Positions 4,607-60,740 of a stretch of DNA of 64,000 nucleotides are shown one piece after another. Position 1 is the stretch's first letter, and every line of letters starts with the position of its first letter. This DNA comes from Octopus vulgaris. Taxonomy: Eukaryota. Both the position numbers and the translations under genes were made by a program. Location: positions 152,954,001-153,018,000 of the forward strand of contig OX597816.1 in the NCBI GenBank assembly GCA_951406725.2, given 5' to 3'. The notes below the pieces were generated by a model that was not told the DNA's origin, ran no database searches, and worked only from the letters and a program-made list of their open reading frames with translations.

Positions 4607-5295
4607 CAATGGCGGCTCATGTATAGGCACTGCGGAACTGCAGCACTCCCTATTTCCACTCGATATTATCAATGACATTCAATATATTGAGTCCTTTTTT
4701 CTTTAATTCTTTCTTTATACTTGTACATTCTATAATCCTTAAGCTTAATGTCAGTAGCCATCTCCTAGTTTATGAAAAAAATACAAAAATCTTTGTATAG
4801 AACTGTGCGTTTCACAGTTCCAGCGACGTGGTTTTTGGTTGTTGTGCGTATACTCACAGGTCCGCTGCATGCTAGGGAGAAAGACCACTGTTGTTCCCGC
4901 AGTGGCGACCCTGGTCTGCTGGTGAAAGGTATTGTTTCTTTTTGACTCCATGTGTGTTGTACTTAAAAACGTATTTATATTCTTGAATGCGATAAAGTGT
5001 AGAAGTAGATTATTATCTGGCTTTCAGCAACAGTGTTGCAGCCAGGATTTGAAAAGTAGGGCAGATTTTCCCACCTTATTTTGTAATATAAGGGGGATTT
5101 TTGAAAAGCAAGGGGGAATTCGCGGCGAATTAACAATTAAACACACTACCCGGCAGTAGCTAAAACGGGAACTGATCACGTTTATGTATAATTTTTTCTT
5201 TTTATATGTTTATATCCTTTTACACAATACTAAAACAACGGCTAAAAATTTTCTGAAGCAGCACCCCAACTAATTTGATCTGCGAGCCGCCACGG
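4607..5295. mobile_element. Non-autonomous hAT-type DNA transposon (MITE)
   Basis: TIRs CAATGGCGGCTC / GAGCCGCCACGG flanked by a perfect 8-bp TSD CTCTCTAT (4599-4606, 5296-5303). Confidence 0.75.
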
Positions 5296-5335
5296 CTCTC
5301 TATTATAAATGCTTTTAGGTTATCAACAGTAAACT

Positions 5336-5341
<6 letters not shown>

Positions 5342-5425
<84 letters not shown>

Positions 5426-5437
5426 ATCTCTCTCTCA
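5342..5437. repeat. (CT)n microsatellite
   Basis: Direct inspection. Confidence 0.95.
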
Positions 5438-6076
5438 TAATACATACAATCTTCTCTTCCACAACCACAACACACTGTTTACTTTTTAATATCTTACTAA
5501 ATTTCTCTTCTGTAGAAAACTGCATTATTAATTACTGTCTTCCGTATGTTATTATTTGGAGATGCCATTTTGCTTTTTTAAGTGTACATTGGGTCGGAGA
5601 ATGTATGCAACCACGATATTCTATGATCTGAAGAGCTAACCTTCTTTACCTGTATTGTCTTGTAAATTGGAAAAATAGGATTATATGATTTATAACATGT
5701 ACATTAAAACAGGGATGTAAAGTAATTTATTATACACTAAAATTATTTTTCCATAATTTGACTAGGAAACGATCGTGATCTTATAGATATCAACAGGTGA
5801 AATAAATATATTCATCTCATACGTTCTAACTTCCTTTATATTTCATATGTTTCTAATGAAATAATCGTTTCAAACTGGATATACTAGATTTCAACTGCCT
5901 AGGATTATACATTACACTCCTCTGTATTGGTTTACTGTATGGTTTGTAGTCTGGTCCAAGCAGGAGACTTTGTGGATACGACCGGATTATTTAAATCCAC
6001 ATATTGTGCATTAAATTTATGTGTGTGCGTGTGCGTGCGTATGCGTGTGTGTGTATCCATGAATGTATATATATAT

Positions 6077-6480
<404 letters not shown>

Positions 6481-6534
6481 ATATCTGTGTGTGTGTGTGT
6501 GTATACAAAGAGATAGACAGACAGACAGACAGAC

Positions 6535-6565
<31 letters not shown>

Positions 6566-6567
<2 letters not shown>

Positions 6568-6784
6568 TGTTTCTTTATTAGCCACACAGGGCTGCACACA
6601 GATAGAACAAATTACAAGGTAGAGCTTTTCTTTTGGGGGTAAAAAAAGGAGAGTGGTGGTTTTCGATCAAAAGGGATCGTAAAAGGAAAGAAAAAGGGGG
6701 GGGACCCGTGGAACTTTGGTTGTGTTGAAGTCACTTAAGGTCGACCCAGGACGGCAGAGTTGCTTGAGAGCAAAGCGACACTCG

Positions 6785-6786
<2 letters not shown>
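6566..6786 (-). mobile_element. Short 5'-truncated retroelement 3' end inserted in a (GATA)n tract
   Basis: Unique ~220 bp flanked on both sides by (GATA)n; minus strand ends in AATAAAGAAAC. Confidence 0.5.
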
Positions 6787-6835
<49 letters not shown>

Positions 6836-6836
6836 G

Positions 6837-6918
<82 letters not shown>

Positions 6919-7188
6919 CAGACATATGCATATGTGTATGTATGTATATATATTCATACACAGAAAATTTATAATATTCATGCCTTATTTTATTTCTTAC
7001 TGTAATTCATTTCAATCATCATATGTACGTATGACTGTTTATGTTTGTGTGTATATATATATATATATACACACACACATAAACATACATGCTTACATGT
7101 ATATGTGTTGTGTATGTATCTGTGTGTGTCTCCCTATCTATCTAGCTCGGTAGCTAGGTAACTAGCTTGCTAGCTATATACGTGTATA

Positions 7189-7354
<166 letters not shown>

Positions 7355-7929
7355 ATACATGAATAGTTGTTTAGTTGTTTGTATATATGTATGTATGTAT
7401 GTATGTATGCATGCATGTATGTATGTATGTATGTATGTATGTATGTATGTATGTATGTATGTATGTATGTATGTATGTATGTATGTATGAATGTATATAA
7501 GTATGTATGTACGTATGTACGTATGTATGTACGTACCTGTTTGTGTATGTGTGTGGGCTTAGGAGTGTTCGTAGTATGTATACAAATTTTCAATACAGCT
7601 GGGGCCATAGCAGACGTGATCGGGCGAAGAGGGTGGTGTTAGTGCTTCCTTAAGTTTGATTGAACATTTGGGTGTGGAGTTAACCGAAACCGCGGACTGT
7701 CCAAATACATATTATACTGTATTATACTGTATCGCATTCAACGCTGCATTGTTTTCAGTTGAATAGCGTTGGCAGTAATTAGCTTATCGATAAAATCATT
7801 AGCTGTGATATGTTCTGATCGATTCATTGATCGATTCAATTATTCCAAGTAAAAGATACTGTTTCACCTTGGGAAAAGATTGAATATACAACTACACGCG
7901 CATGCATACACACACACACACAATATATA

Positions 7930-7990
<61 letters not shown>

Positions 7991-8006
7991 CATATAAATG
8001 TGTGGG

Positions 8007-8042
<36 letters not shown>

Positions 8043-8529
8043 TATCTATATATATTTCTGCCTCTGTGTGTGTGAGAGAGAGGGGAAGAGAGTGTGAGGC
8101 GGGGGTTGGACGAACAAAGAAGAGAAAGAAAAATCAATCCCTAAATATATGTGCGTTTTTTAATTGTCAATTGGCGAAAGTTACAAAAGTGCCGCAAGGG
8201 CTGGGAGTTTCCACCATGGCACTTATCACACTGATTTATCAGTTTGATAAGTACCATACACGAAACTCTCTACTCTTGAGACACCTTTGTGATTTTTCGG
8301 CTGATCAAAAGTAATAAAGATTATATGCATATGCTTGCATGTATGTATGTATGTATGTATGTATGTATGTATGTATGTATGTATGTATGTATGTATGTAT
8401 ATGCGCGGATTTATATGTTTTGTTTTATCTATGTATTCTCATGCATATAGTTGCATATCTAGACATACTCATATATACTTAAATGATAAACTTCTGGTAA
8501 GTTTTACAGATTTTTAGAGTGTCAGCGAT

Positions 8530-8830
8530 GGATTGAATCTGTATTCTTCGAATTAGCTATCTCCTTTCTGATTTTGAGACGCCTAATTTCTCAAGACAGG
8601 TATTTAGGTAGTGTGTTACATATCCCAGTACCCCAATAATTGTAGGCATAAATCTGAACTTGTAATCTGGATAGAGTAACTGCAAATTTCTCAATAGTTC
8701 AGCGTAAGTATTTTCTTTTTCGCCGATCTTCAGCCTTATGTTAACATTCGCTGGGCAGCTGATTTCCACAACTGTTCGCAGTTTCTCTTCTCTATCCCAA
8801 ATCATTATATCAGGTCTTTGTTTTTATATA
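8530..8830 (-). pseudogene. REL endonuclease fragment of a Dong/R4-type non-LTR retrotransposon
   Basis: RPDIMIWDREEK...VVEISCP...KENTY...PTIIG: PD-(D/E)xK REL architecture. Confidence 0.75.
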
Positions 8831-9207
8831 TTATACTGAGGTTTTCGCTGGGACATTCCATGAGTATTCCTTTTCATTATGAGTGGCTGTGGCTTCCAAC
8901 TCCAAGAGCAATGAGTTTTGTAGTTAGGATTTTTTCTATAACTATAGCTAGAAAGAATTTGTTTACTTGTTGAGCTGTTGTTTTCGTTCTGTTCCTTGAT
9001 TATGCTATTGTTGATGTTGTGTCCAATCATGTTGTTTGTAGTAACTCTCTGCATGCTTTAAGAATTATTTCGTGATGTGCAAATGGATACCATGAGTTTA
9101 CTTTCAGATATACTCATTAGGTTATTTTTTTTGGTATTATCTGAAATAGAATACCTGCATATCTATTAATCCCAAAAAACTGAATTATTATTCACTTTTA
9201 TTAGATA

Positions 9208-9591
9208 CTAGCAGTATCGCCCGGCGTTGCTCAGGTTTGTAAGGGAAATAACTATAAAGCATTTTTAGAGAGTTATAGCCAAAAAATAGCAAAAAAATGG
9301 AAAAAAAATGATGGTAAATTTTTTTTGAGAGTTAAAAAAGGTGGAGTTGCGTCCCCTAGACGGTCTGTGGTTTGGGTTTCTGATTCTCGACCCCATGTCG
9401 AATTTATCGATTTTTTTCAGAACTGGGGGAACTTTTCAAAATTTTCGCTGCGTTAGTTTTGAATTATGACATTGGGCTATGTGTGTGTCAAGTTTCATCA
9501 GAATCGGTTGAAAGCCGTGGTCAGAGTGAGGGTACGAGAAAACAGACACACAGAAAACGCACAGACAAACTGCCGTTTATATAGAGAGAGA
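9208..9591 (-). mobile_element. Non-autonomous Helitron
   Basis: Minus strand starts A|TCTCTC..., ends with a GC-rich hairpin (gagcaacgccgggcg) and CTAG|T; no TSD; same 3' end as 33202. Confidence 0.75.
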
Positions 9592-9876
9592 TTTTGTATA
9601 TTTCTAGATAAACATATAAATATGTGATAAATAAGACCCCAAGGTACGATATGCAGATGCATGTAATGCTGAAGGGTTGTACGTGATTGATTTGGAAATT
9701 CGTTTTCCCAAATTATTTAAATTAACTATGTACACTTGCGTCGGAAATTAATTAGCACTTCTCAAATTTCTACATTTTCTTACATTTTCTTAATTTAATT
9801 AACTTATTATCAGAAACGAACTCGTTTTTAATCAAAAATTTATTAAAACATATCCCAGCACACCACATAATTGTTA

Positions 9877-10880
9877 TTAATCGTGAAATTTAGTCAATAT
9901 CTTGTTGCTCCTCCTTTGGCAGCAATGACAGCCGCTACGCGGGTCGGCATGCTGTCTATGAGTACCTGCAGGGATGGCCCTCCATGCAGCAAGAAGTGCC
10001 CCAAACAGCTCGTGTCGGTTCCTGTATTGCTGCACATTCAAATCCCTACCCAATCGACTCCAGAGGTTCTCAATAGGGTTCAGGTCAGGTGACTGGCCAG
10101 GCCAGTCCATGACCGTCACCCCATGGTCCTTGAAGAAACCAGTTGTGAGCTTGGCTGTGTGGGAAGGCGCGTTGTCCTGCTGGAGCACGTACTCCTCGCC
10201 ACCAAAGAGGTATCCCGTACTATCTCAACGTACTTTGCTGCGTTGATGTTGCCTTCGACGGCATAGAGCCGCCCAACACCACTGTAGCTGAACGCTCCTC
10301 ACACCATCAGACCACCCCCACCATGCTTCATGGTGGGAGCAATGCAGTCTTTGTTGAAGCGCTCACCCTTGTGGCGTCGCACATGGACAGGCTTGTCACT
10401 GACGAGACTGAATCGCGACTCGTCAGTGAACATCACTGTCCGCCACTGCTGCACGGTCCATGTCTTGTGGGCACGGGCCCAGAGCAGCCGCCTCTTCCGG
10501 TTTTGGGCTGTAAGGAGCAGCTTACGGGCGGCCCTACAGGATTTTAGACCAGCTTCCAGTAATCTGGTCTTGACGGTGGTTGTAGACAACTGCTTCCCTG
10601 TCATCTTTTGCATCTCCTCCGCCAGTTGCCGGCTCGTTGCCCTTCGGTTGTACAGTGACTTTCGGATCAGCATCCGGTCCTCCCGCTGGGGCGTCAGCCT
10701 CTTCCATCCCCTACCCTATTTGTCAGCTGCTGATCCGGTTTCCTCGTATTTCTTAAATAAGCACTGAATTGTGCGCCTGGCTACACCAAGTTTTCTGGCT
10801 ATTGCAGCCTCCGACAGCTTCCCACGCCACGAGAGAGCCTCGTACCGTCTCTCCAAGGTCATGCGAGATCTTGGGCCCAT
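9877..10880 (-). pseudogene. Tc1 transposase pseudogene (DD34E)
   Basis: MGPRSRMTLERRYEAL...IARKLGVARRTIQ (HTH), FTDESRF, QQDNAPSH-34 aa-SPDLNPIENLW; in-frame stops near 10716 and 10299 plus frameshifts. Confidence 0.93.
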
Positions 10881-54689: not shown

Positions 54690-56770
54690 TTATTTTATTT
54701 TATTTAGTTTCAGCTCACAAGCTGTGGCCATGCTGGGGCACCGCCATTTATGGTTGCTACATGATTTTACTTCACGAATGCTTTTTAGCAAATGCCATCT
54801 GGTGCATTAGAGAGTTCGATGCAGCTGCCCTCATCTGCACCTCCTGCCGTGAAGTTGGTTCATCTAGGACACCTGACAAGAAGAGATCCAGTTTCATTTT
54901 AAAGACATCTGCATCCACCCCATGCAGGTCTCTTAGGTTCTTCGGGAGGATATTGAAGAGCTGTGGGCCTCGGAAACCCAGGCTATCACAGTATCTTGTC
55001 CTACATCTTGATGGCAAATTTGGAATCCTTGGCAAAATGCAGTGGCGCCCAGTTCTGGGATTTGTGTAACTCTCGATGCCAAAGTTTGGGACAAGTCCTT
55101 CTAGGATCTTCCAGATGTATATTATGGCATATCTTTCTCGCCTACGCTCTAAGGAATAGAGTCTCAGTCTCTTGAGTCTTTCCCAATAGCTTATATGCTG
55201 CACAGAGGCTATCTTCTTCGTGTAGCTTCGTTGGATCGCCTCAAGTTCTGTGATTAACTTGACACTGGATGGTGACCATAGCTAAGAGCAATAGTCAAAG
55301 TGGCTTAGGACAAGCGTCCTCCACAGGACCATCATGGTTTCCTGGTCTCTTGTTCTAAAGGTTCTAAGAATCCATCCGGTCCGCCGCCTACATTTCATTG
55401 CCAATTTAGCAACATGCACATGAAAGGTTGCATCATCATCATCACCCAGGTCTCGCACTGATTGTGCCTCTGGGATTGCAATCCCTCCAGGTCCAGTGTA
55501 TTTATTGGGTATTGCATTTAGTTTTGCATGCTGATAGTATAAAGCTTGAAACTTTTCAGCATTGAACTGCATGCTATTCTTTTCAGCCCACTTGTATATT
55601 TTGTCCAGCTCACATTGCAGGTGAGTAGCGTCTTCAGGGTTCTGTATTGCCTGTGAAACTTTTGTTTCATCTGCATAACTTGTGATCGTGGCTCTCTGCG
55701 TGGCTGAGGGATGTCTGAGAGGGCCATTATGAACAGTAGTGGTCCCAGAACAGTGCCTTGTGGAACACCGCTCACTATTTGCGTGTTAATGGAAGTGGCC
55801 CCATTGGCTACTACCACCTGACTTCTATCCTTCAGAAAGTCATGAAGCCATTCTCCCAATTTTCCAACTATGCCAAGATCACGCAGTTTGTGACATATCA
55901 TTCCATGATCGACTTTATCAAAGGCCTTTGCAAAGTCGAGATATATGACTTCCACATTTGAGTGGTTGAGCAGTCGTTTCAGCACCCAGTCATAGTGTTG
56001 TAGGAGCTGAGTTAAGCAGCTTTTTCCTGGTCGGAAACCATGTTGGGTGTCAGGCAGCAAGTCATTTTCTTCAAGGAAGGGGATTAGTTTCCTTCTGACT
56101 ATTCATTCCATGACTTTGCTGATGTGTGAGGTCAGAGAGATAGGTCTGTAGTTCTTGGCCTCCGCTCTGCTACCTCCTTTATGAATAGGGCATATTTTAC
56201 CTTCCTTCAGTTTTCTTGAAAGTTTGCCAGTTGCAAGGAAGCTCTGAAAGAGGAACTGCAGTGGTCTTGCTAGGACTCTCTTACATACTTTTAGAAGGAT
56301 TGCTGGGAATCCATCGGGACCAGTAGCTGAGTTTGTTTTCATTTCATCAATAGCCTTTATTACATCGTCTTCCTCTATATTGATGTAATCAATCATCGCT
56401 GCCTCTGATTTTATATCTGCAGTGGTGAAGAAGACAGTTGGATTGCTGACTTGAAAATGCCCTAGGGGTGGAGTGAAAATACTCTTGAATTGCTCATTTA
56501 GTATTTCACTTACCCTCCTTGGATTTCCTGTGAGTGTGCCATCCTTTTCAAGGAGTGGCCCTGTCTTACAGTGCACCGTAGCTGTTTCTTTGGCATACCT
56601 GTAGAAAGCTCTGGGGTTAGATTTTATGTTGTCTATAGCCCAGGCTTCTTTGTCTGCTCTTTCTTTTTCATGGGTGAGTTGCAGACATTTTTCAATTTCC
56701 AACAGTTTTATTTTCAGACGGGACTTTTCACTGCTTTCAATTTGTTTGTTTAGGCGATTTGAAACTTTTG
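54684..56770 (-). mobile_element. CR1-type LINE, 5'-truncated, with (TAAAA)n tail, inserted in (TA)n
   Basis: GPDG...[62 protein letters not shown]; several frameshifts and stops. Confidence 0.9.
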
Positions 56771-56795
56771 TATATATACATATACATATATATAC

Positions 56796-56899
<104 letters not shown>

Positions 56900-56918
56900 C
56901 ACATATACACAATGCAAC

Positions 56919-57313
56919 AAGCTGGCAGAAACGTTAGCACGCCGGGCGATATGCTTAGCGGTATTTCGTCTGCCGTTACGTTCTGAGTTCAAGTTTCGCC
57001 GTGGTCGACTTTGCCTTTCATCCTTTCGGGGTCCATAAATTAAGTACCAGTTACGCACAGGGGTCGATGAAATCGACTTAATCTGTTTGTCTGTCCTTGT
57101 TTGTCCTCTCTGTGTTTAGCCCCTTGTGGGTAGTAAAGAAATAGGTATTTCGTCTGTCTTTACGTTATGAGTGCAAATTCCGCCGAGGCTGACTTTGCCT
57201 TTCATCATTTCGGAGTCGATAAATTAAGTACCAGTTGCGTTCTGGGTCGATCTAATAGACTGCCCCACCCACTCTCCCAAAATTTCGTCGTGCCTTGTGC
57301 CTAGAGTAGAAAA
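56919..57313 (+). mobile_element. Composite (1.5-mer) SINE family A copy
   Basis: Same architecture as 48581-48975. Confidence 0.85.
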
Positions 57314-57773: not shown

Positions 57774-58153
57774 GTAGGCGTGGCTGTGTGGTAAGAAGCT
57801 TGCTTCCCAACCACATGTTTTCCGGGTTCAGTTTCACTGCTTGGTACCTTGGGCAAATATCTTCTAGTATAGCCTCGGACCGACAAAAGCCTTGTGAGTG
57901 GATTTGGTAGACGGAAGCTGAAAGAAGCCCGTCGTATGTCTATATTTGTGTGTTTGCGTTTCTGTTTGTCCATTGCTTGACAACCAATCAATCTTGGTGC
58001 GTTTACGTCCCCGCAACTTAGCATTTCGACAAACGACACCAATAGAATAAGTACCAGGCTTACAAAGAATAAGTCCAGAGGTCAATTTCTTCGACTAAAA
58101 GGTGGTGATACAGTATGGCTACTGTCAAAACGACTGAAACAAGTTAGAGAATA
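57774..58153 (+). mobile_element. tRNA-derived CORE-type SINE, family B (full length)
   Basis: A-box TGGCTGTGTGGTAAG, B-box-like GGGTTCAGTTTC, CORE-like ACCTTGGGCAA, LINE-like tail ending TGAAACAAG. Confidence 0.85.
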
Positions 58154-58183
58154 AATATATACAAAAACAATATATGTATATAT

Positions 58184-58260
<77 letters not shown>

Positions 58261-58521
58261 TTTGTATATATTTATTCTTTTACTTGTTTCAGTCATATAT
58301 ATATATATGTGTGTGTGTGGATGTATGTATGCATATATATATATATTGAAAAGGGTGCATGACGGAACGAAAATTTTAAGAAAAGAAAATATATGAGGGG
58401 AAACTTTACCAGTTAGTGTGTGAGATAATAAGGCACTAAAAGAGAATGATTTTCCCCAGATGCAACAAAATATGCTTCAACACAGGAACTCACATAAAGA
58501 ATCCAAAAACGATTTATATAT

Positions 58522-58883
58522 ATAAAGTGATGGTTTGTTACCAACCTAATGTGGCAACTTATTTAGCCCCAAGAAACACCGTTTCTAGTTGGCTACGTGA
58601 CACAAGCATTCTGTGTCCTTAGGTTTTCAAACAAGGGAGATAAGCATCTCCACCCGACAAAGCTACCATACAGAGACTAGTTTCAGGGTAGTTGCCCTTC
58701 ATCAGTCTGGAGTAGCTTCGCCTTGCTAGCTGTCGGTGCTAAATCGGTGTTGAAAATTTAAGGACAGAGAAAGCTTGTGTCACGTAGCCAACTAGAAATG
58801 GTGTTTCTTGGGACTAAATAGCAGTAGCGTTCTTCCCTTTCCTGGGACTACGACATTAAGTTGGCAACAAAACATCACTTTAT
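58522..58883. repeat. ~360-nt fold-back element with an apical hammerhead
   Basis: Outer arms 58522-58552 / 58853-58883 (about 28/31) and inner arms 58560-58630 / 58750-58820 (about 65/71), counted by eye. Confidence 0.9.
58671..58709 (-). ncRNA. Canonical minimal type I hammerhead ribozyme
   Basis: CAGA-CTGATGA-AGGG caacta CCCT-GAAA-CTAG-TC-TCTG; GUC cleavage triplet; palindromic stem III; stem I extended by AAGCTAC/GTAGCTT. Confidence 0.85.
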
Positions 58884-58952
58884 CGTGCTGCTACTGCATA
58901 ACTCTCTCAGATATTTAGAAATGCAATGTTTCTAATTTTGATACATACATAC

Positions 58953-59009
<57 letters not shown>

Positions 59010-60740
59010 TGAACTATTGTACCGAATTCAATTCTGTTTCGGCAATGGTGATGTGGGGCGGGCTCTACTCTTCCTAAGGAGCTGGTTGGTGTACGACTTC
59101 AGTCTTTTTCAAGCTTACTTCCAACCTGTCTGGAATTTCATGAGGAAATTTCTATTGCCTCTGGCCCATATTGATGTAGAATTGTGGTAAAGGGGTTTAC
59201 CACATCAAAAGCTACAATATCATTGTTTATGGATTTAGGGTTGATTTAACAGGTCCAGGTCGTCCCTAATAAGACTTGGTATGTATTTTGAAATAAGTTC
59301 CAATAATATATCTAAAAAGTTGCTGTGCCTGTGTGTTTCACAGTTCGGGCCTGCTAGGATTGGTCAGAGTTTAAGGTCAGTGGGATATTGTATGGTCATG
59401 CAACTTAAAGTTGGTTCTTTACATGCATTCTTAATAGTTTGATTCTTATAGATTTTGGGGAAACCGTAGAAGTAGCTAGTCTTGCAATTAAAATGGGTTA
59501 GGTAGTCACATTCTTTGTTAAACCTTTTTGATGTCTGTGAATGTGTGCGTTCAGTTTAGTTATTGTCTTTGATTTTTGGTAATTATTTACCTTTTTGTAG
59601 TAGGTCATATCTTGTAATGTAGATAGTATATCTGTTTTGTAGTGTTCAATATCCATAGTAACTATAACACTTTCCTTATCTGCTTCCTTAATTGTAATGT
59701 CATCATTGTTTTTCAGTTCGCGTATAGTATCCCATTGCTTTTGACTGGTATTGGGTATTGGGCTTACTTTTAGGGTGTGGAAGCTCTTTGTAAGGGAAGG
59801 TAAATATAAAAATCACAAAATTTATCTAAAGCTTTAGTCTTATCTTTCGTAGGATTGTAATCGCTTTTGTTTCTTACAAGTGATTCGTCCCTGTTTTCTT
59901 TATCGAACAATTCCTCTGTTAGACGTAGTTTTCTACATATCTCTGAAATATCGTGCTGTATTTCATTGGAGTTAGGGTACTGTGGTGTTTGGGTAAATTT
60001 TAGGCCTTTTGATGAGTTTTTTGGATAGGTTAACTATTTTCAGTTTCTTATCTTCGGTTTGTATCATCTGGTGTCGAGAACTCGGTCGGTTGGACCTTTT
60101 ATTACTATTTATATATCCGAGGACATTTTCTTTGTTAACTTGCTCCCTTTTGTATCGATTTCGTGCATTTTGTTGTTCTGCATTGTGGTAGTTTCTCTCT
60201 GTAATTGTTTTTAAGTTGATATTTTTATCCGTTGTGTGTGTGTGTCTTCGGCTTTGGAGAAAGTTCAGTCCAATCGGAGGGAAAACTTCTTTTATTTGGA
60301 TTATTTTGTTGTCTAAGTAGTCTTTAATTGTTCCTATGAAACTGGTGAATATAATTTCCATACTTAAGTGTTTGATTAATCGGTTGCGAATGGTGTTTGT
60401 GGATTTTAACTTCCTTTAGAAATGAATTATCGGTAGATTTTAACTTTCTTCAGGAATGGGTTATCTTTTTTCAAACGAGATTCAGAATTGGAGAACCAAA
60501 GAACATTTCTCTTTCACCTTTGAAGAGAGGTTAATTCCTCGTTCTCACATTTTTCTTTCCCGAGTTTAATATTGTTTTCTCGGCTTTCGGATGTTTTTGA
60601 AATTTGTTTGCATTTGTGCGTCAATTGTTTAAATTTTTATTCGTTGGAATTTACTCCTAGTAGTAGTAGTTGGGTTTCCATTCTGAATTTATCGAGAGCC
60701 GTCTTTTCTCTAGGTTTTTGCTGTTCTTCGGGTTCATTAG
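59010..60740 (-). pseudogene. Degenerate Penelope-like element reverse transcriptase (N-terminal half)
   Basis: IVNLSK, GLKFTQTP, NDDITIKEADKESVIV, FYGFPKIYK, L*PILAGP, VAFDVV match PLE motifs KGLxF, IKxADKG, FYGLPKIHK, RPI, SFDV. Confidence 0.82.

Follow-up and report, generated by a model that had tools for sequence, protein, structure and literature searches.

A head-to-head pair of hammerhead repeat copies in a TA tract of the Octopus vulgaris genome, with a likely origin in one Penelope-type integration

Type I hammerhead ribozymes of animals can have a minimal helix III of 1-2 bp closed by a palindromic loop of 2-4 nt, and in the accounts given by PMC4209133 and PMC7229834 such ribozymes are weak alone and active as dimers. 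The animal retrozymes are proposed to depend on Penelope-like elements (PLEs) in the relevant sections of PMC7229834 and bioRxiv 10.64898/2026.07.22.740005. For insertions of PLEs themselves, PMC8557442 describes (TA)n targets, partially tandem copies, a further copy that is inverted, 5'-truncated and placed at the 5' end, and a tail that is confined to one of the two ends. Here, we report a hammerhead-bearing hairpin locus in octopus that can be compared with these systems. The stretch 58522-58936 holds two partial copies of one repeat placed head-to-head in a TA tract, and we consider it probable that they were left by a single Penelope-type integration in which both ends of the tract primed cDNA.

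The locus lies in a stretch of 64,000 nt of Octopus vulgaris DNA (contig OX597816.1, positions 152,954,001 to 153,018,000), which is called the window throughout and from whose first base all positions are counted. As ruler (R) for the repeat unit we used a natural full copy from the same genome, L025:1464-1815, which has 352 nt and 42% GC; on this ruler the hammerhead begins at R93 and is cut after R123. The pieces found in the window were placed by blastn against this unit. The features of the locus are the following:

58511-58521: left flank, a short TA run that touches the 3' end of copy 1 (sequence)
58522-58760, minus strand: copy 1, R38-297 running from 58760 down to 58522, 80% identity (blastn)
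58560-58630: left inner arm, pairs with 58750-58820 (repeat search)
58647-58733, minus strand: hammerhead domain, type I (sequence, regex, covariance model)
58749-58766: head-to-head junction, a single 11-mer TAAGTTTTCAA, in the window TAAATTTTCAA (sequence)
58750-58820: right inner arm, pairs with 58560-58630 (repeat search)
58760-58936, plus strand: copy 2, R175-352 running from 58760 up to 58936, 87% identity (blastn)
58821-58852, plus strand: segment of 32 nt present in the right arm only, an asymmetric bulge of the hairpin
58937-59010: right flank, an ATAC/TA microsatellite that touches the 3' end of copy 2 (sequence)
59150-60093, minus strand: remnant of a Penelope-like reverse transcriptase (RT), a separate element, residues 15-336 of a 776-residue ORF, with frameshifts

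The inner arms of the hairpin comprise 71 nt each, are 92% complementary and are separated by 119 nt according to the repeat search, and comparison of the region with itself by BLAST adds outer arms of 31 nt and 90% (58522-58552 and 58853-58883). A reading made before from the sequence alone (the sequence-only reading) had described paired arms of about 71 and 31 bp and a highly paired minus-strand transcript, and both points hold: the minus-strand RNA of 58522-58883 folds with -191.7 kcal/mol compared to -90.7 +/- 5.6 in 100 shuffles (z -18.1), and none of the 100 shuffles folded equally well. The element extends beyond these arms to 58936, since a tail of 55 nt (R298-352) follows in the plus-strand copy, which is missing from copy 1 and remains unpaired on the left side. 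Alignment with other copies showed that the 32-nt bulge corresponds to a deletion in the minus-strand copy. The microsatellite of the right flank is likely the target tract. Just left of the element, 58424-58515 is part of a far more abundant repeat, with a summed contig word depth of up to approximately 1.3 million (run X3) compared to 2-5 thousand over the ribozyme. Many contigs continue beyond 58503 with a common sequence that is absent from the window, which suggests a small deletion near 58503 in the window.

The hammerhead reads, on the minus strand, AAGCUAC UC CAGA CUGAUGA AGGG CAACUA CCCU GAAA CUAG UC / UCUG UAUG GUAGCUU. Its core elements CUGAUGA (58705-58699), GAAA (58684-58681) and UC are all intact. 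Stem II has 4 bp (AGGG/CCCU) with the loop CAACUA, helix III consists of 1 bp (A-U) with a CUAG cap, which gives the 6-nt palindrome ACUAGU, and stem I is composed of 4 bp (CAGA/UCUG), an internal loop and a 7-bp helix (AAGCUAC/GUAGCUU). The cut is predicted between C58675 (C17) and U58674. The intact CUGAUGA/GAAA/GUC core on the minus strand, the 4-bp stem II, the CUAG palindromic stem III, the 7-bp extension of stem I and a cut after C58675 had all been proposed in the sequence-only reading, and we could confirm them in the sequence. It must be mentioned that the bare core pattern (58705 to 58675), which matched once in the window against 0.22 matches expected, was matched at least once in 21 of 100 shuffles. 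The core pattern alone is thus weak, and the case therefore rests on the helices and on the conservation in the family. The covariance model, which was built including the window copy, scored 105.5 bits at this copy. Rfam reported no hammerhead in the whole window at gathering score; searches of 601 nt and 76 nt at E<=10 also gave no hammerhead, and all that these Rfam searches returned were TA-repeat 'miRNA' and chance snoRNA-like matches.

Ribozyme copies of the family were collected by BLAST with the natural segment. All 13 core positions are kept in 33 of 56 distinct ribozyme-spanning copies, and in 17 of 40 if the window and the pattern-drawn loci are left out, while the ACUAGU palindrome is kept in 45 of the 56. 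Over the 16 pairs of helices I-III, 87.6% of the cells in the 56 copies are paired compared to 24-51% with slid partners, which is a lenient control because the structure came from the same sequences. Column shuffles reached 87.3% paired cells and were as high as the observed value in 116 of 500 cases, as expected for copies in neutral decay. Since the overall covariation is no better than in shuffles, the helices rest on one compensatory pair and on the fit to the known motif. This is pair 3 of stem II (G-C 17, A-U 12, G-U 4, A.C 20), the switch of which tracks two subfamilies visible in the alignment. The active fold of the 73-nt domain (-24.9 kcal/mol) lies 2 kcal/mol above the minimum free energy (MFE, -26.9). 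In the 415-nt transcript it is likewise only 2 kcal/mol above the MFE (-196.6 and -198.6), hence the arms are no obstacle. Having a single ribozyme, the window locus could cut its own transcript once at most. A second, diverged hammerhead-like repeat was seen elsewhere in the genome (L044:5921-6260, plus strand), which scores 34 bits with the family model and has a variant core (C for U4) and an 8-nt palindromic helix III. Its last approximately 36 nt (6225-6260) are 83% identical to the 3' end of the 352-nt family and are followed by (TA)n; a young PLE that is 5'-truncated faces it head-to-head across a TA/GA microsatellite.

Compared with its relatives in the genome, the hairpin is composed of two partial copies of a non-coding hammerhead repeat of about 352 nt and is not a unit of its own. 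A search of the own genome (2.8 Gb) yielded 2529 first-look candidates, of which 40 were scored and gave at least 116 matches, and the copies in the genome number on the order of a thousand. The family is old, with a median pairwise identity of 85.6%. Most of the listed matches covered positions 124-324 of the query on one strand and, overlapping with this, the reverse of 1-134 on the other strand, which therefore represents a plain unit without hairpin, the 3' part of which is matched again by the 5' arm of the query. Alignment of 16 copies with their flanks revealed a longer common unit, in which the 3' end frequently runs straight into the 5' start of the unit, and mapping on the L025 unit showed full units, solo copies, 5'-truncated copies, partial tandems and inverted pairs. 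The sequence-only reading had suggested examining copy number and shared boundaries, and it had taken copies without the inverted arm as the sign of a one-off rearrangement. Many copies indeed exist and most of them are without the arm, but the arm is not a one-off, and the inverted junction differs between loci. The longest stop-free stretch in a dimer of the unit has 71 codons, and such a non-coding unit of 352 nt with a type I hammerhead falls within the definition of animal non-LTR retrozymes, which covers units of ~170-400 nt free of LTR, PBS and PPT. A tRNA scan of 58000-59300 found none. Among public runs, none recorded as RNA contained the stretch; family members at 85-99% likeness are present in contigs of four runs, three of which are only presumed to be RNA. 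Among the papers listed by a literature search on octopus hammerhead ribozymes, none describes the 352-nt family.

The arrangement of the copies was analyzed at 75 loci from three samples, drawn with the whole hairpin, with the intact-ribozyme pattern (15 genome matches; none for the reversed control) and with the 131-nt tail alone; the hairpin- and pattern-drawn samples are biased by their own queries in their proportions. After merging overlaps, 122 distinct pieces at 67 sites remained, of which 28 sites carry a solo unit. Among adjacent pairs (gap <=60 nt) at the 75 loci, 28 are head-to-head, 27 are on the same strand and none is tail-to-tail. A single segmental duplication (L013/14/17) accounts for three of the 28 head-to-head pairs, and a further one is the pair in the window. 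The tail-only sample has head-to-head pairs at 10 of its 29 loci and again no tail-to-tail pair, and many of its copies begin at graded points from R49 to R218, i.e. they are 5'-truncated. The 27 same-strand pairs are mostly partial, and two intact cores in tandem, 356 nt apart, occur at only one of the 67 sites (L015). The 95 free 3' ends fall into R289-298 (35) and R350-352 (45), with 15 elsewhere, and by a crude count TA repeats directly adjoin 28 of the 80 canonical ends. The junctions of the inverted pairs vary by locus (R38/R175, R3/R201, R1/R205, R230/R1, R140/R175 and others), thus the inverted pairs arose repeatedly. At one locus (L055, 1323-1826) the arms of a head-to-head pair are 97.6% identical over 124 nt; judged by this identity, the pair is much younger than that of the window, or it has been homogenised. 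Another head-to-head pair (L065, 5024-5204; G000:C1, ~88.58 Mb) has a ribozyme in both arms, with covariance-model matches of 107.6 and 86.7 bits on opposite strands.

Both copies in the window are 5'-truncated and inverted relative to each other; their 5' ends meet at 58760 and their 3' ends point outward to the TA repeats. Copy 1 bears the hammerhead, ends in the short form (...CAUCACUUUAU) and has an internal deletion of approximately 25 nt, as shown by alignment with 16 other copies. Copy 2 is without hammerhead and ends in the long form (...UUUCUAAU plus UUUG); the best other copies are 92% identical to it over 131 nt. The unit contains two mutually complementary 11-mers, with that at approximately R36-46 being the reverse complement of approximately R165-175, and the single 11-mer of the junction sits where these two would overlap. 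Both are exact in one copy (L011, positions 38 and 168), and they pair with each other in the predicted fold of the unit. Two further loci have a junction almost at the same place (L003, R38/R166) or nearby (L002, R60/R163), and at another one R175 is joined to a different partner point, R140 (L091). The recurrence near R38/R175, which spans two different subfamilies, can be explained because cDNAs ending there have complementary 3' ends in the form of the 11-mers.

These arrangements can be combined into a proposal for the origin of the locus. The repeat would be a non-autonomous retroelement that relies for its copying on the RT/endonuclease of a PLE. Its RNA would be reverse transcribed from either of two fixed start points, unit 297 or 352, which end in ...UAU/...AAU and could anneal to a (TA)n end. 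Within one event, both broken (TA)n ends would prime cDNA on repeat RNA, the two cDNAs would stall or end near unit 38 and unit 175, and the complementary 11-mers would finally link them. The ribozyme, if paired in tandem or between molecules, is expected to cut after GUC via the 6-bp helix III formed by ACUAGU, and such dimer-type cutting could turn multimeric transcripts into monomers of about 352 nt. In this proposal, every inverted pair is head-to-head because both ends of the tract prime and the cDNAs join at the 11-nt site. For the family as a whole, we see the chances as evenly divided that it records PLE integration of this kind, with both (TA)n 3'-OH ends priming at the two fixed starts and the cDNAs joining at the 11-nt self-complementary site. 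The inverted 5'-truncated copy, the tail at one end and the 3' ends at a microsatellite, which characterize PLE-type insertions, were all found, and the combination of 5' truncation, partial tandems, inverted copies, one-sided tail and TA flanks corresponds to the published footprint of PLE insertion. The long hairpin is then a by-product of insertion and not a selected RNA rod.

Among the other explanations, it is very unlikely that the hairpin itself is a functional or replicating unit, i.e. a rod-like, viroid-like or hairpin-retrozyme RNA that was selected or stems from a hairpin master. Such a unit would fit to the very stable predicted fold (z -18), to the position of the ribozyme in the apical domain with an active fold compatible with the arms, and to the near-same junction at L003 and the nearby one at L002. 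However, 28 of the 67 sites carry solo units and the inverted pairs have many different junctions, and the recurrence of R38/R175 in two subfamilies is explained by the 11-nt complementary sites. The identity between the two arms of the window is 87.9% over 99 nt, near the family median, and each arm has 24-26 relatives among 73 other copies that are closer to it than its partner arm, hence the pairing was not maintained since the insertion; in such an old, star-like family this comparison fits both an origin at insertion and inheritance. Moreover, there is one ribozyme in one polarity, so that a monomer cannot be released. For ordinary units, the z of the fold is only -0.83 (the 356-nt cut-to-cut monomer of L015) and -4.4 (L025). 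The viroid-sized rod of the sequence-only reading was thus not upheld as the unit, given that most copies lack the arm, junctions vary and the unit itself folds with z -0.8 and -4.4.

It is highly improbable that the hairpin represents the terminal repeat, a pLTR with an inverted 5'-truncated copy, of the PLE of which the remnant at 59150-60093 was left. The remnant was identified as PLE by tblastn with PLE ORFs from the same genome and by a protein search of the own genome, while Pfam found no family in four of its reading frames. It is close to the element and on the same strand, and pLTRs of PLEs are described as bearing hammerheads, often with inverted copies (PMC4209133, PMC8557442, in their parts on these repeats). 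In addition, a unit pair at L050/L065 is directly preceded upstream by a short fragment of this RT family, with 72 residues in L065, and by chance we would expect fewer loci than these two (window and L050/L065) to combine this RT family with a unit pair. Nevertheless, the remnant breaks off at residue 336 of the 776, and tblastn found its 3' half and the endonuclease nowhere in the window. The sequence-only reading had correctly placed the remnant nearby and on the same strand, but the distance to the edge of the element is 214 nt and not about 130, and it is filled by a (TA)n tract and approximately 140 nt of unrelated sequence. The 3' ends pointing outward on both sides are the mark of a self-contained insertion. 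A better-preserved PLE of the same family (L049) has a different 3' UTR without hammerhead match. PLE coding sequence occurs within 1.5 kb of the unit at only two of 45 loci (window, L050/L065) and at none of the 29 tail-sample loci. A pLTR should stand on both sides of an RT-endonuclease ORF, and no PLE ORF was found beside the unit at 43 of the 45 and at all 29 tail-sample loci. With the incomplete remnant (residues 15-336 of 776, 3' half missing) and the (TA)n between, the idea that the hairpin is its terminal repeat had to be given up. The alternative offered in the same reading, an independent retrozyme-like unit, was right in kind: the locus belongs to a hammerhead repeat of about 352 nt, with many copies away from any PLE ORF. 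A LINE-type RT fragment at 55518-56933 on the minus strand (Pfam RVT_1, E 9.9e-16), split by a TA/TATG microsatellite, has no relation to the PLE remnant.

Many PLE families exist in this genome: at least 150 of 3348 candidates were scored, and open frames of 776 residues are frequent among them. Five PLE-bearing loci of 10 kb and 12 shorter ones contained no strong covariance-model match inside any PLE, and the model run over 20 sources gave no match inside a PLE. Among the PLEs examined, there was no autonomous one with the hammerhead or the 3' tail of the 352-nt repeat. Three candidates for an autonomous partner were rejected. The PLE at C15:77.6 Mb has a unit 1.5 kb upstream but no second copy past the ORF; the young 776-residue family has an unrelated, GC-rich 3' UTR; and L049 has no hammerhead downstream of the ORF, whereas upstream, in a rearranged region, its other strand bears only a unit-like 1.x-mer of 67% similarity. 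The 3' UTR of L049 (reverse complement, 5138-5470) ends with ...CACTTTACTATTTTCTTAT, followed by (TA)n, and this end has a faint likeness to the two 3' ends known from the hammerhead repeat, ...CACTTTAT and ...TATTTCTAAT. A shared priming motif is possible, and the likeness is short, AT-rich and maybe due to chance. An inverted architecture was also seen at the scale of full elements, with two young PLE copies of about 4 kb head-to-head at 99.8% identity (L045:961-4943 and 6017-10000), which contain the 776-residue ORF and an upstream frame of 487 residues. A further PLE (L043) has an inverted repeat of 287 nt (97.6%) at its 5' end.

We also give hardly any credence to two independent insertions in opposite orientation into one (TA)n microsatellite. 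The family prefers TA tracts, microsatellites can gather several insertions, and L044 indeed has a PLE and another hammerhead repeat with (TA)n between them. But independent insertions should give head-to-head and tail-to-tail pairs equally, which contrasts with 28 to 0 in all loci and 10 to 0 in the tail-only sample, and the copies in the window abut without a microsatellite between and have the junction 11-mer in common. The least credible explanation is a DNA transposon of the foldback or MITE type, bounded by terminal inverted repeats and a TA target duplication. Inverted termini beside TA and a size of ~360-415 bp are opposed by the unequal ends (unit 297 versus unit 352 with the 55-nt tail), by the lack of an inverted terminus in most copies, and by the signs of reverse transcription that the family bears, namely 5' truncation to graded extents, partial tandems and 3' ends at two fixed points.

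Taken by itself, the window locus represents a known class of insertion in an old and worn state. The family adds a case of animal hammerhead repeats with the full PLE insertion footprint and supports the idea that retrozymes ride on PLEs. The head-to-head rule together with the junction microhomology gives a concrete picture of two-sided priming, an integration step of a sort that is listed as not understood in the discussion of PLE integration in PMC8557442. If the integration of two cDNAs from both tract ends is true, short non-coding hammerhead repeats would offer a tractable way to follow how PLEs integrate and, furthermore, would be a steady source of genomic long-hairpin loci. The case also calls for caution in sequence scans, because what looks like a 'rod' of viroid size, tipped with a ribozyme, can have arisen at the DNA level as a by-product of insertion.

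With hammerhead viroids and viroid-like circular RNAs, the locus has the size range, the high self-pairing at the window and the hammerhead motif in common. In contrast to them, it is a genomic DNA repeat with one ribozyme per locus in one polarity, and the rod is not conserved in the family; neither ribozymes in both polarities nor a conserved whole-unit fold were found in the 352-nt family. LINE-1 twin priming, as reportedly proposed by Ostertag and Kazazian in 2001, is said to use the second DNA end as primer and to join an inverted segment at microhomology. The likeness is that a second priming on the other DNA end would give an inverted segment at microhomology here as well. In LINE-1, the inverted segment derives from another region of the RNA that lies further 5', whereas here the same 3' portion is found in both arms, so that two templates, or two passes on one, would be needed.

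Like axolotl HHR_Amex1 and the newt satellite ribozymes, as far as these are presented in PMC7229834 and PMC4209133, the predicted ribozyme is a canonical metazoan type I hammerhead with a minimal helix III. It differs from them by an A-U pair at 10.1-11.1, by a sequence outside the core that is unrelated as far as compared, and in having no Rfam type I match. With PLE insertions as described by Craig, Yushenova, Rodriguez and Arkhipova (2021, PMC8557442, in its account of insertion structures), the family shares the high degree of 5' truncation, the tandems, the inverted copy, the tail and (TA)n. The unit, however, is without ORF and ten times shorter than a PLE, and its tail has 55 nt compared to the 30-40 nt given there for PLEs. 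The closest match are the animal non-LTR retrozymes, for which the descriptions by Cervera and de la Pena (2020, PMC7229834) and by Li, Clavereau and Pollet (2026, bioRxiv 10.64898/2026.07.22.740005) give a short unit without coding capacity (170-400 nt) that bears a type I hammerhead and has low GC (42% here), dispersed and tandem copies, PLEs in the same genome and a proposed PLE-dependent spread. Unlike those retrozymes, the octopus copies are mostly single, 5'-truncated or 1.x-mers and not long arrays, with tandem intact ribozymes at one of 67 sites; the family is old and known here from genomic DNA. By these features, the 352-nt family appears to be of the animal non-LTR retrozyme kind, represented at the window by an old and worn copy.
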